Shown here piece after piece: positions 2,531 through 46,011 of a stretch of 64,000 nt of DNA; the first letter of the stretch is position 1; the number at the start of each line of letters is the position of its first letter. Source of the stretch: Octopus vulgaris (taxonomy: Eukaryota). The position numbers and the translations under genes are program-made. Under the pieces are notes generated by a model. It searched no databases. It saw nothing but the letters and a program-made list of their open reading frames with translations, and was not told where the DNA came from. The stretch lies in the NCBI GenBank assembly GCA_951406725.2, contig OX597823.1, positions 35,216,001 to 35,280,000 on the forward strand, read 5' to 3'.

Positions 2531-2578
2531 ATTCAAAAGCATACCGGTTTCGGGAATTTACTAATCATTGCTTTGAAT
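2531..2578 (-). ncRNA. Minimal type I hammerhead ribozyme motif, A3-U8 variant
   Basis: Minus strand reads aagca-ATGATTA-gtaaattccc-GAAA-CCGG-TA-tgctt: stem I aagca/tgctt, palindromic stem III ACCGGT, weak stem II. Confidence 0.6.
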
Positions 2579-2864
2579 GCACACTGATATTAGTCCCTGA
2601 GTAAAAAATTATATATATACTTATAGTTGTAAGTACATATACGTATGTATATATATATATATATATATATATATATATATATATATATATATATATATAT
2701 GTATGTATATATATATGTATATATATATATGTATATATATATATATGTATGTGTATATATATATGTATGTATATATATATATGTATGTGTATGTGTATAT
2801 ATGTATGTGTATATATATATGTATGTATATATATATATATATATGTATATATATATATATATAC

Positions 2865-3097
2865 GGAGGCGCAATGGTCCAGTGGTTAGGGCAGCGGACT
2901 CGTGGTCGTAGGATCGCGGTTTCGATTCCCAGACCGGGCGTTGCGAGTGTTTATTGAGCGAAAACACCTACAAGCTCCACGAGTCTCCGGCAGGGGTTGG
3001 TGATCCCTGCGGTACTCTTTCACCACTCTTTCTCCCACTCTTTCTTCTGTTGGCCTGCTCGCTTAGCCAGCGGGGTGGCGTTATTCGAAGGCTAAAA
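2865..3097 (+). mobile_element. tRNA-derived SINE
   Basis: Pol III A box (tggtccagtggtt) and B box (ggtttcgattccc) followed by a non-tRNA body; directly follows a TA-rich microsatellite. Confidence 0.8.
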
Positions 3098-3473
3098 TAA
3101 TTTATATTATTATATGATTGAATGCCACGCATCCTCTTCCAAGTAAGTTTTATCTTAATAATTCTGATGCGCACTCTATACGATCTTTTTATTCTCTCGT
3201 TTTCTTCTCTTTCTCTCTTCTTCTTTTACCCCCTCTTCTCCCACTATTCTATCCTATTACTCTGTCGCTCTCTCTCCCTCACTCCTTCTTTGCTCACGTG
3301 GCTCCCACATGACCATCGGCCATCTTTTTTCTCTCCGTTGTAACTGGAACAAGAAAGGCGTGTTCTTGTTTGTCTCCTGTTCTAGTTTGATTCAGGCGTT
3401 CGCCACCACAACCTCGTTTAGTCTCAGCAGCTCTTCCTCTTTGTTTTCAGTGTCCTGTTTGCGTTACCTATTT

Positions 3474-41535: not shown

Positions 41536-42707
41536 CTAGTATATAGTTGTTCTTTGTTGATTAGGGGTCTCCTGTTGTGATTTGTGGTGTGTGTTCTTGG
41601 AGCAGTATTGAGGAGAGCATCCCGATATCCCATATTCGGGTGTGGTGTTCTAGGAGGCCTTCGTTGGTAATCATTGCAAGTGGTGTGGGTTTGTTGTGCA
41701 TGGTTGTTTAACCGGTTAATGGGATGAATATTTCGTTGGTAACTCCTTTGGGTGGGGATGAGGTTGCAGTGTCTATGCTGTGGGTGTTGATTTATCCTTT
41801 CTCTGCTTGAAGTGGGGGTATTCCTGATATTGTATCGCTGGCTGCTTACAGAGTTGGGGTTAGGTCCTGTATTCTTTTTTTGATAGTAGTGAAGGTTCCG
41901 ATTTTTAGACAGGTGTGTATCGGTGTTTGGGTGTTGTTTTGGTTTTCTTATTTTCTGGAAAGGGTTGTTGGAGGCGTGCTCTGTTTGAAAGACGGCTTCA
42001 TAGTCTGAGAACCAAGTGGCGCTTTTCTCCCAGCGTTGGAGAGATTTTAGTTCTTCTTTTTCACAGTCCTCTTTCCATAGTTTGGAGAACTTCTCTTGAT
42101 CTGGGCCTTGGGTCATTTTGCGAATTTCTTCGTTGATATCTTCATCGGTGGATTTTATTTTATCCTCATTCGTTTGGGCCCTCAATTTCAGAAGTTCTAT
42201 TTCCATTTTCATTTTTTCCAGTGCCATTCTCTCCCTGAGGTGTCTTTGTGTTTCAGGTTCTTCTGTAATAGCTTTGAACTGGAATTTACGTGGGAGGATT
42301 AACGGGGTCCGGTTGAGCCATTTTTCGTATATATCCGCTTTGTTGTTGTTTTGGATCATCTTCCAAAAGGCGAACTTTCTATCTCTGAGTGATTTGTTCC
42401 ATTGTGGTATTATGTGGTGTTTCATTTGGTATGTTGTTAGAGTATTGATCCCATATATTGACGCGTTTGGAGGTCCTTGGTTAGCGTTGTTAGAGAAAAA
42501 TGTTCTAATTGTTTCGCATAAGTTTCCAAGGTTTTCGACAATTTCGGAGGTTGTATTTTTCGTATCTGTTTCTTCATTGTTCTCTCGATTGGGTTGAAGT
42601 GTCGAGTCGAATTTGTTCAAAAAAGTTGACAAATTTGTGTTGATTTTCTTGAGTTCTTTCAGTATTTCTTCGTTTATGGAGGTGATTGTGTCTGTTTTTG
42701 TCGGCAT
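41472..42707 (-). CDS. PLE ORF1, 411 aa, with predicted coiled-coil region and basic low-complexity C-terminus
   Basis: Uninterrupted ORF from ATG (MPTKTD) just inside the 5' pLTR boundary; E/K-rich helical segment. Confidence 0.8.
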   Translation of the reverse strand: MPTKTDTITSINEEILKELKKINTNLSTFLNKFDSTLQPNRENNEETDTKNTTSEIVENLGNLCETIRTFFSNNANQGPPNASIYGINTLTTYQMKHHIIPQWNKSLRDRKFAFWKMIQNNNKADIYEKWLNRTPLILPRKFQFKAITEEPETQRHLRERMALEKMKMEIELLKLRAQTNEDKIKSTDEDINEEIRKMTQGPDQEKFSKLWKEDCEKEELKSLQRWEKSATWFSDYEAVFQTEHASNNPFQKIRKPKQHPNTDTHLSKNRNLHYYQKKNTGPNPNSVSSQRYNIRNTPTSSRERINQHPQHRHCNLIPTQRSYQRNIHPINRLNNHAQQTHTTCNDYQRRPPRTPHPNMGYRDALLNTAPRTHTTNHNRRPLINKEQLYTSYRPNHRIHFLDLIRKHRDTR

Positions 42708-44431
42708 TTTCTGTATCTCGTGTGGGTTAATGATATGTATAAGGGTGAAAAGGAACACACGAGTTGATATATATGAAAAAACAAGTAAAAAATAGAAAAT
42801 GCTAAAATAATTTTATAGTGAACATTTCAGTACCGGTTTCGGTCATTTTGAGACCTTTTCAACTGTAACGATTAAATAATTAAATTTAGAAAAATTAGAA
42901 GAAAAGTTTTTTTAAAAGAATATTTCTATAGTAGTGTTCAGATTTAAGTGGCATTCTGCCTTTCTCTGACTCCCTTGTTTGCACTTGTGTGTTCGAGGTA
43001 GTTGTGAGTTCTTGGTAGGGTAGTAGAGGGAAGGCTGGTGAGGAAAGGGGGTGGGAGAATCTGGGAGTGCCCTGATGGTCGTATTTTGAATGGTCAGTGG
43101 CGGCTGGCAGTCTCAGTTCAATTCAGGATTGTTTATAGAATTAGCGTAGGTGTTATACTAAAAAACATTAGTGACAAACTTAAGGGGTCCTTCAAACAGG
43201 GACAACGGTTTACAGTGAAAAGCAACTTCACATGTGCTTCGGAGAACCTAATATACTCACTAACCTGCTCCGGGTGTCAAGAGCAGTACATAGGCCAAAC
43301 AAAAAATGGTTTGCGTAAACGAATGGCCCTGCACAGATCCCAGATAAAAATTCCCCAAAACAGAAAAATAGCTTTTAGCCAACACATAGATACTTGCGCC
43401 AACAAAAAAACACCAAACTTCAGAATTTTCCCCCTCTACCAATTTAGGGACGATACAACCTCGAGACAAAGAATAAGTAAAGAAAATCTCTTTATTACAA
43501 AATACAAGCCACTTCTTAACGGGTCTACGACAAACAATTAATATACCTCAACTTTAGAATAAAAGAAAAAAATATATATACACACACAAATACTACACTC
43601 CATAGAATCCATTACTAATCAGCCCCTTCATAGCTATATTTACACCCATTCATATTCTCCCTTCTCTGTTTTTTTCTTCTTCTTCTTCTTCATCATCATC
43701 GTTATCATCATCATCGGCGTCATCATCATCACCACCACCATCACCACCATCTTCTCCTTCTCCTCTTCTTCTTCTTCTTCTTCTTCTTCTTCTTCTTCTT
43801 CTTCTTCTTCTTCTTCTTCTTCTTCTTCTTCATCATCATCGTTATCATCATCATCGTCGTCATAATCATCACCACCATCACCATCATCCTCTCCTTCTCT
43901 TCTTCTTCTTCTTCTTCTTCTTCTTCTTCTTCTTCTTCTTCTTCTTCTCCACCCCCTACCCCTTAAGTTTGTCACTAATGTTTTTTAGTATAACACCTAC
44001 GCTAATTCTATAAACAATCCTGAATTGAACTGAGACTGCCAGCCGCCACTGACCATTCAAAATACGACCATCAGGGCACTCCCAGATTCTCCCACCCCCT
44101 TTCCTCACCAGCCTTCCCTCTACTACCCTACCAAGAACTCACAACTACCTCGAACACACAAGTGCAAACAAGGGAGTCAGAGAAAGGCAGAATGCCACTT
44201 AAATCTGAACACTACTATAGAAATATTCTTTTAAAAAAACTTTTCTTCTAATTTTTCTAAATTTAATTATTTAATCGTTACAGTTGAAAAGGTCTCCAAA
44301 ATGACCGAAACCGGTACTGAAATGTTCACTATAAAATTATTTTAGCATTTTCTATTTTTTACTTGTTTTTCATATATATATATATATATTTTTATATATA
44401 TATATATATATATATATATATATATATATAT

Positions 44432-46011
44432 AATCAAAATAAGTAACAAGGATATCCAGAGATAATGCAGTACGATCGTTTCATGCCACTCCATTTAATT
44501 GAACAATGCAATCATTACATCAATTTAAAATGTAGAGCGATCTTCAGCTGCACAAAGATATAGAATTTAATTAAATTAGGACACACTAGTATAATTTTAT
44601 CCAAAATCTCCAAGAGGATAAGGAGATAGACAAAGAACATGTTTTACCAATTACTTGATTTTTTCTTTTTCTCGAATAGCTCCACCCTACTGATCTTAGT
44701 ATGTATAAAGATCTTTATATAAATAACCTCTCTAAATAAGTACGAATTAAAAAATATATATATCATGTAGGGTGTAATAATAACAATTTCTTAAACCTAT
44801 AATATAACCCTTAATTTTATAAAAAGATTAGTTGATAGTAAAAGTTTGCTCCATAACTTAATTATTTTTTTAGCCGATATTAAACATCAGTCTTTTATAG
44901 ATTTTATCTTGACAAGTAAATATAATTTTTAGTCTAACATTTTGAATTACTAAATTTTTTTCTAAAAATCTTCCCTATTGATGTTAACAAGCTAAATATA
45001 CCTTACCATAGTTTTAGTAAGTAAACCATTTTACACCTTTTCTATAATGTTCTACCAATGATAATTTTATTTTTAAAACTAGCTCTAATTAATTTATTTA
45101 TAAAATTACTCTAAGTCTTGTATCTCTATAAATTTCATACTCAGCTTATATAAAGCTATGCCGGTATATTCACTACTTAAAATAAAAAATCTACTTAGAC
45201 TAAAATTTTAAATATATAATTAACATGTTTGTTTACCTCAATTTTCCTTTATTAATACCACTAAATACAATTTAATCAATAATTAAAGATATATGTTAAG
45301 TTAGTATTTAAGTATATAAATATTGAACTATTTCTATATTTTCTGTCCCTCTATTGTGTAAAATTTTGATATATACTGAAAGAATTCATAAATATTCTTC
45401 TTAATAATCTTTGGAATAACCCTAAACGTTATCTGTATATATAGATCTGCATTGTTTTATAGTAGTTAACTGTAGCACTATATGATAAGACTTCCCCTGT
45501 CCCATTAGCATTGGTCTGCTTAATAGCAGCCAACATCTTGTCTGAAGTATTCTCTTACCAAACCTCATGGCGTTGCTTCAAATAAATCTTCATTTATGGC
45601 TATGCCATTTAGAAGGTCTATCTACTCTACCCCACCCCAAACTGATACTACCCTCTGTCGTCTCTCAGATTTGATAAACTAGTCTATAAAATAAAAACTG
45701 ACCCCCCGTAATTGAAACTAAATAACAGAAATAATCAGTGAAAAGCAGTGTCTTCTTTGAAAAAAAATTCAGTTACAACTGTGATGTTGTTGGTAAAACA
45801 TGTTCTTTGTCTATCTCCTTATCCTCTTGGAGATTTTGGATAAAATTAAACTAATGTGTCCTTCAAATTTAATTAAAGTCTATGCTTTTGTGCAGCTGAA
45901 GATTGCTCTACATTTTAAATTGATGTAATGATTGCATTGTTCAATTAAATGGAGTGGCATGAAACGATCGTACTGCATTACCTCTGGATATACTTGTTGC
46001 TTATTTCGATT
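44432..46011. mobile_element. Element bounded by ~220-bp inverted hammerhead-bearing repeats, with ~1.1 kb AT-rich interior
   Basis: ~44432-44650 is inverted at ~45789-46011; interior ~45320-45700 resembles ~18420-18880. Confidence 0.7.
45891..45977 (+). ncRNA. Type I hammerhead motif with long irregular stem II (mirror at ~44466-44552 minus)
   Basis: tgcag-CTGAAGA-...-GAAA-CGATCG-TA-ctgca. Confidence 0.65.

Follow-up and report, generated by a model that had tools for sequence, protein, structure and literature searches.

Hammerhead ribozyme motifs in the genome of Octopus vulgaris, best read as minimal type I hammerheads sited at the termini of Penelope-like retrotransposons and of short derivatives, belong to repeat families that each fix one complementary pair between positions 3 and 8 of the core. 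The likely cause is selection, acting in the source lineages, for the tertiary 3-8 pair of a slow predicted self-cleavage that would take place in dimers; we give this reading a probability of about 0.68. The window, meaning the whole stretch of DNA analysed here, comprises 64,000 nucleotides (nt) of contig OX597823.1 (positions 35,216,001 to 35,280,000; G000:C10:35216001-35280000) in a genome of 2.8 Gb and 227 contigs. A preliminary description had placed ten hammerheads in this window, and all ten motifs are present at the positions and on the strands it gave, each inside a type I layout. Families with copies in the window are labelled A to H.

The 3-8 pair across families

We searched with a type I descriptor (core NUGANNA ... 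GAAA ... UH, open stem I) in which positions 3 and 8 were left free. In the window, it recovers every previously cited copy except that at 31017, where stem I is interrupted, and it adds two uncited twins, at 7576(-) and 44547(-); 31017 also has a decayed counterpart at 28516(-). The covariation between positions 3 and 8 proposed in the preliminary description was borne out across families. The majority form is a Watson-Crick pair in all 20 multi-locus clusters (11 C-G, 5 U-A, 3 A-U and 1 G-C), where cluster counts are drawn from all sequence scanned, targeted loci included. Among the 29 single-locus clusters (score at least 14), 23 are C-G and 2 are C·A; U-A, A-U and U·G account for 1 each, as does a mixture of C-G and U·G.

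Pattern searches for individual families covered the genome with positions 3 and 8 free, and pairs were tallied by eye on the first 100 matches listed. Family A has 3,251 matches, with A8 in 100/100 listed and U-A in 65/65 clustered matches. Family F has 5,717, among which 94 of the 100 listed are G3-C8 and 6 carry single changes, while A3-U8 occurs in 95/100 listed of the 382 matches to family H. The 139 matches to family G are more varied (among 100 listed, 85 A3-U8, 9 G3-C8, 4 A3·C8, 1 U3·C8 and 1 G3·U8). Reversed-sequence controls gave no match for any of these four families. Family E is U3-A8 in 12/12 copies fetched out of 41 matches, and its majority form has an intact stem I of 6 bp and stem II of 4 bp; in families G and H, stem II is very short (2-3 bp).

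A search with a generic pattern requiring a position-3 purine yielded 1,578 matches, compared with 70 in its control; the 100 listed comprised 82 A-U, 5 G-C and 13 mismatched. Two matches to this pattern had looked like a G3·A8 mismatch family, a candidate rejected as decay of a U3-A8 family (88 U-A, 10 U·G, 1 A-U and 1 G·A in 100 listed). Also rejected was an AUG start codon as the reason for A3 in family G: the frame stops after 11 codons, and stem II length also differs by one base between the subfamilies of this family. The family H frame from that AUG runs for about 18 codons (read by eye). In a single inverted insertion at L304:1374-1532, the two arms differ, one having U3-A8 and the other A3-U8.

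Census against chance

We scanned a genome sample of 140 stretches of 10 kb (1.4 Mb, at round coordinates in 30 contigs), with the reversed sequence and three shuffles as controls. The strict descriptor gave 60 matches, of which 53 have a Watson-Crick 3-8 pair. When stem II was required to span 2 bp or more, 45/45 were Watson-Crick (29 C-G, 8 U-A, 6 G-C and 2 A-U), against a background complementarity at these positions of 24% among 16,912 heptamers of the sample; the reversed control gave 0 matches and the shuffles 1, 1 and 4. Seven of the C-G matches stem from one tandem array. Two A3-U8 singletons, located in AT-rich or simple sequence, look like chance and were discounted. In a relaxed scored scan, the count was 70/75 Watson-Crick at a score of at least 12 (reversed control 1) and 50/50 at a score of at least 15 (reversed control 0).

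An array at L070:2300-4550 (G000:C1, ~20.00 Mb) holds seven identical C3-G8 hammerheads about 355-359 nt apart, five forward and two inverted. It resembles a non-LTR retrozyme (LTR, long terminal repeat).

Cores other than CUGANGA make up 16/50 motifs in the relaxed scan (score at least 15) and 16/45 in the strict scan, where two are probably chance. The earlier expectation that a search requiring CUGANGA would miss many octopus ribozymes therefore holds, with about a third of intact motifs lost, and hammerhead censuses built on this core undercount by roughly that fraction in this genome. Extrapolation suggests a genome total of roughly 100,000 intact motifs, ~30,000 of them invisible to a CUGANGA search. 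Rfam listed no hammerhead among 150 of 200 matches for the window, nor any in five small loci; its best hammerhead match was HH9, at 18.6 bits against a gathering threshold of 52.

Switching of the pair within and between families

Family G consists of sister subfamilies with A3-U8 and G3-C8. Nine G3-C8 copies share linked sites that are absent or rare in 35 A3-U8 copies: C at position -35 (6/7 vs 0/20 A3-U8 copies) and two stem II loop sites. These shared sites point to descent of the G3-C8 copies from a source element of their own. Somewhat more distant relatives (loci L306 and L344-L346) are also G3-C8, which suggests that this pair is ancestral in the lineage. The switch counts as one event; the tree of family G (23/50 rows) has one well-supported fork and is weak overall. 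The two subfamilies form a near-isogenic natural pair (A3-U8 / G3-C8) for asking whether Penelope hammerheads must cut.

Covariation among relatives was examined in 11 representatives, hand-picked from a group with the palindrome ACCGGU and preselected for pairing by the descriptor. Double changes occur at 6/6 stem I pairs, 1/2 stem II pairs and the 3-8 pair, which is AU in 7, GC in 3 and UA in 1; all are paired and the rest of the core is invariant. A tree of the endonuclease domain (40/55 rows, after dropping 6 that lack a hammerhead and 9 that are duplicates or doubtfully linked) joins A, G and two J/K rows with strong support.

Selection for pairing and, possibly, for cleavage

If the pair is kept for self-cleavage, two RNAs, or two Penelope terminal repeats (pLTRs) of one tandem transcript, would base-pair at the palindrome and so form a complete stem III. 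Residue 8 would be positioned by the 3-8 pair, and G12 and the 2'-OH of residue 8 would act by analogy with other hammerheads. A slow cut after NUH would trim read-through or tandem transcripts, possibly with assistance from the element's protein, as in the case of the Anolis element (PMC11167929; this and the other literature is cited from the accessible parts of each source). Once inserted, genomic copies decay neutrally, which leaves source elements as the only targets of selection. By computation, the palindrome of stem III forms a duplex of -8 to -15 kcal/mol in most families (-0.2 in family F), and the hammerhead dimer is the minimum-energy dimer in 6/13 folded sequences, among them an intact A3-U8 copy from each of families G and H. 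For most families, intact copies are computed to join in twos at the palindrome, the hammerhead form being their most stable dimer.

Several observations weigh against this reading. The hammerhead dimer is not the best dimer in the other 7/13 (2568, 7608, 22071, 31017, 44284, L282 and L346), and that of family F (-28.8 kcal/mol) is less stable than two monomers (-30.8). No copy has its 5' end within 5 nt of the predicted cut (0/32 in F and 0/12 in A; the tally for family D was swamped by a neighbouring repeat and set aside), so templates were uncut or religated. Since inserted copies were copied through uncut motifs, any cleavage is probably weak or conditional. When a type III hammerhead was scanned pairwise, rescue came from the G-C swap alone, with low activity for the motif's other double mutants (PMC9901934). 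Within family J, one subfamily has fixed U3·G8 (111 matches; 99/100 listed), and strict Watson-Crick pairing is thus unneeded for amplification. Of 26 tallied in an old, diverged family, 13 show C-G and 9 C·A, with U·G in 2 and U-A and A·G in 1 each, a spread that neutral decay could plausibly explain. The endonuclease tree does not resolve the number of pair switches, and since the families share ancestry, independent swaps are only a few. The preliminary description had taken the covariation to mean that activity was selected for; selection for 3-8 pairing is well supported, while selection for cleavage itself is not established.

The strongest competing explanation, which we nevertheless consider unlikely, is that the fold, 3-8 pair included, was selected as a structure, for example as a site of protein binding or dimerisation, and that swapped cores cut little or not at all. 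It would account for copies reverse-transcribed through uncut motifs. In vitro, insertion is normal for catalytic mutants, and in Anolis the cut site is not an end point of any RNA-seq reads (PMC11167929); such insertion without cleavage also counts against the self-cleavage reading. Other functions were not ruled out by Cervera and De la Pena (PMC4209133), and A3-U8 was not rescued in one mutational scan (PMC9901934). However, U4, G5, A6, A9, G12-A15.1 and U16.1 stay constant in diverged representatives whose stems change, an invariance partly built into the pattern. The C3-G8 pair is moreover seen in the active fold and is absent from minimal ground-state crystals (PMC3884650), so its retention points to the catalytic conformation.

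We find it improbable that selection on the pair is weak and episodic, with cores drifting through mismatch or wobble, lineages amplifying regardless, and the Watson-Crick majorities reflecting a few founder events. The fixed U3·G8 subfamily would fit such drift, as would C3·A8 in 9/26 of the old family and A3·C8 in 4/100 listed of family G, and Naiad elements amplify without canonical hammerheads (PMC8557442). Drift predicts more single than double changes, though, and a mismatched majority is found in none of the 20 multi-locus clusters; U·G still counts as a pair and is an expected stepping stone, and positions 3 and 8 are two of about six sites distinguishing the family G subfamilies. Chance matches picked for their complementarity are a negligible explanation, already refuted at family level by the reversed and shuffled controls: although the two A3-U8 singletons look like chance, controls gave 0 to 4 matches against 45, and the genome-wide family patterns gave hundreds to thousands against a reversed control of 0.

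Selection for the tertiary pair of a slow predicted self-cleavage remains our preferred reading. An extension of it seems possible to us, if short of probable: all four Watson-Crick 3-8 forms, and U·G, may be working natural cores in one genome, between which Penelope lineages step by compensatory changes (as in family G), and the identity of the pair may tune predicted cleavage down so that the element is copied whole. If so, current descriptors and Rfam would overlook tens of thousands of ribozymes per genome.

Relation to known hammerheads

Penelope minimal hammerheads are known as type I motifs in pLTRs, with a palindromic stem III, an optional extra base after A9 and a low, dimer-dependent activity (PMC4209133). 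The families described here share with the hammerheads of Cervera and De la Pena (2014; PMC4209133) the type I layout in pLTRs, the palindromic stem III, the extra base after A9 and the family structure. U3-A8 was also already reported there, with ~1,300 matches in Schistosoma. Among the 56 representatives in Fig. S3 of that paper, two have U3-A8 and one has U3·G8 beside the C3-G8 cores, and position 3 is never a purine. Unlike in that set, G3-C8 and A3-U8 are family norms here, and stem II is reduced to 2-3 bp in G and H.

The first natural covariation from C3-G8 to U3-A8 was described by Perreault et al. (2011; PMC3088659), together with stem II of 1-2 bp and a U10.1-U11.1 opening; the section on core variants names no G3-C8 or A3-U8, which are norms of whole families here. 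Among engineered swaps, C3G/G8C partly rescues a Penelope hammerhead (PMC11167929), and G3-C8 partly restores the cleavage lost by single mutants (PMC11167929, PMC9901934, PMC8495972). These are laboratory mutants, whereas the swaps reported here are found in natural families. The accessible parts of PMC6155905, PMC13481778 and PMC10085705 name no natural G3-C8 or A3-U8, and Lünse, Weinberg and Breaker (2017) are cited for Penelope-associated hammerheads that cleave as dimers (PMC6765202).

What is added here is an unbiased census, a switch between A-U and G-C within a family, and a U·G subfamily. The work of Lünse, Weinberg and Breaker is reportedly a large catalogue of Penelope-associated dimeric hammerheads. 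We found no published case of natural G3-C8 or A3-U8, in a search that did not extend to that catalogue or to some supplements, which could hold such variants. The families provide evidence from natural evolution for a tertiary 3-8 pair whose earlier support came from crystals, mutants and the U3-A8 variant.

Penelope-like carriers

The families were initially described as unrelated, which does not apply to those at 2568, 31017 and 38.4-44.3 kb (G, H and A); these are related Penelope-like elements. All three fit the endonuclease-bearing (EN+) type, in which a reverse transcriptase (RT) ends in a GIY-YIG domain and partial tandem pLTRs accompany an inverted 5' copy. Family A is represented by an intact element, whose open reading frame (ORF) of 784 amino acids (39181..41535, -) comprises the RT (Pfam RVT_1, E=3.5e-8), a CxxxxCxxC linker and, C-terminally, a GIY-YIG (E=3.8e-4, below the curated cut-off). 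The linker, seen in translation only, fits the description of Neptune or Nematis, for which CX2-5CxxC before the GIY-YIG has been described (PMC8557442). The termini are partial tandem pLTRs with a 456-nt direct repeat, and a 1,252-nt inverted repeat marks a 5' inversion.

U3-A8 hammerheads lie in the 3' pLTR (38422..38467, -; heptamer at 38460), the 5' pLTR (42824..42869, -; heptamer at 42862) and the inverted 5' copy (44277..44323, +; heptamer at 44284) of this element. Otherwise almost identical, these three pLTR copies are distinguished by their stem II loop, where an extra C is present in the two copies located after an ORF end and absent from the 5' copy. The pattern could reflect a linear tandem template or a homopolymer error. 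Upstream of the RT-endonuclease ORF, and slightly overlapping it, lies an open frame of 446 amino acids without a Pfam match (41472..42812, -). Canonical elements are described as having a single ORF, and a related frame is present in loci L143 and L283. An older family A pLTR remnant (~75% identical) lies at 7085-7344, with U3·G8 and G12->A at 7195(-).

The ORF ends of G and H are 42-62% identical to the family A ORF and sit upstream of their hammerheads, at a distance of ~188-190 nt in family G relatives and ~300 nt in family H. The family G copy in the window is an A3-U8 minimal hammerhead (2535..2575, -; heptamer 2562-2568; predicted cut after 2542) at a 5'-truncated Penelope end, with a damaged stem II. 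Family H has an A3-U8 hammerhead at 31010..31048 (+; heptamer 31017-31023), 321 nt past the ORF end and with stems I and II damaged, and a decayed A3-U8 twin at 28485..28523 (-; heptamer at 28516), in which A9 and the palindrome are mutated. Its broken ORF (28488..30695) runs on both strands, with the RT part on (-) from 30151 downward and the C-terminal endonuclease region on (+) at 30144-30695; an inversion is present in family H too. In the window, the copies at 2568, 22071 and 31017 carry stem damage, and their identity as hammerheads is confirmed only through their families. A further broken Penelope RT fragment, 41-46% identical to family A, lies at 14869-16215 (-).

Short elements

Family F forms an inverted pair at 7454..7730, an element of ~260 nt in which no ORF was found, between TA repeats (~7345-7395 and from 7731). 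Its G3-C8 hammerheads lie at 7601..7650 (+; heptamer 7608-7614; predicted cut after 7643) and, as the inverted twin, at 7534..7583 (-; heptamer from 7576; predicted cut after 7541). The (+) copy has a stem I of 7 bp, one extra base followed by a stem II of 5 bp, and a weak AU-only palindrome. A Penelope RT-endonuclease ORF was in place in 0/30 family F loci, two matches belonging to other elements. The TA-repeat flanks and 5' inversions of these loci suggest a non-autonomous passenger.

No similarity to a Penelope ORF was found at B, C, D or E in the window. Family B (19190..19915, -) consists of ~1.5 head-to-tail copies of a 479-nt unit, with a C3-G8 hammerhead at 19416..19478 (-; heptamer 19465-19471; predicted cut after 19423). 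Family C (34447..35226, +) consists of ~1.6 copies, arranged head to tail, of a 479-nt unit and shows a 5' inversion; its C3-G8 hammerhead at 34896..34999 (+; heptamer 34903-34909; predicted cut after 34992) has a long stem II and a 12-nt palindrome. The unit length is the same in both families, yet no similarity was detected between them. They are like non-LTR retrozymes, for which an origin from Penelope pLTRs has been proposed (PMC7229834; bioRxiv 10.64898/2026.07.22.740005), in their short non-coding head-to-tail units and type I hammerhead. The preprint calls for two or more consecutive units, each bearing a complete hammerhead, whereas B and C carry one complete hammerhead per insertion of 1.5-1.6 units; family F differs from non-LTR retrozymes in that it was not seen in tandem.

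Family D has a C3-G8 hammerhead at 45889..45979 (+; heptamer 45896-45902; predicted cut after 45972), whose long stem II opens with U-U, and an inverted C3-G8 twin at 44464..44554 (-; heptamer at 44547). The U3-A8 hammerhead of family E (22064..22112, +; heptamer from 22071) is a decayed copy of a family whose fold is intact.

Other features of the window

The window also contains a Mariner-type transposase fragment (31660-32244, +; Transposase_1) and a frameshifted non-LTR RT element (55045-57491, +; RVT_1, E=3.5e-30). An exon of a Rhodopsin-family G-protein-coupled receptor (7tm_1, E=4.6e-39) at 58093-59193 (-) presumably resembles vasopressin/oxytocin-type receptors. A tRNA gene with a UGA anticodon and a long variable arm (Rfam, 65 bits) lies at 35358-35439 (+).

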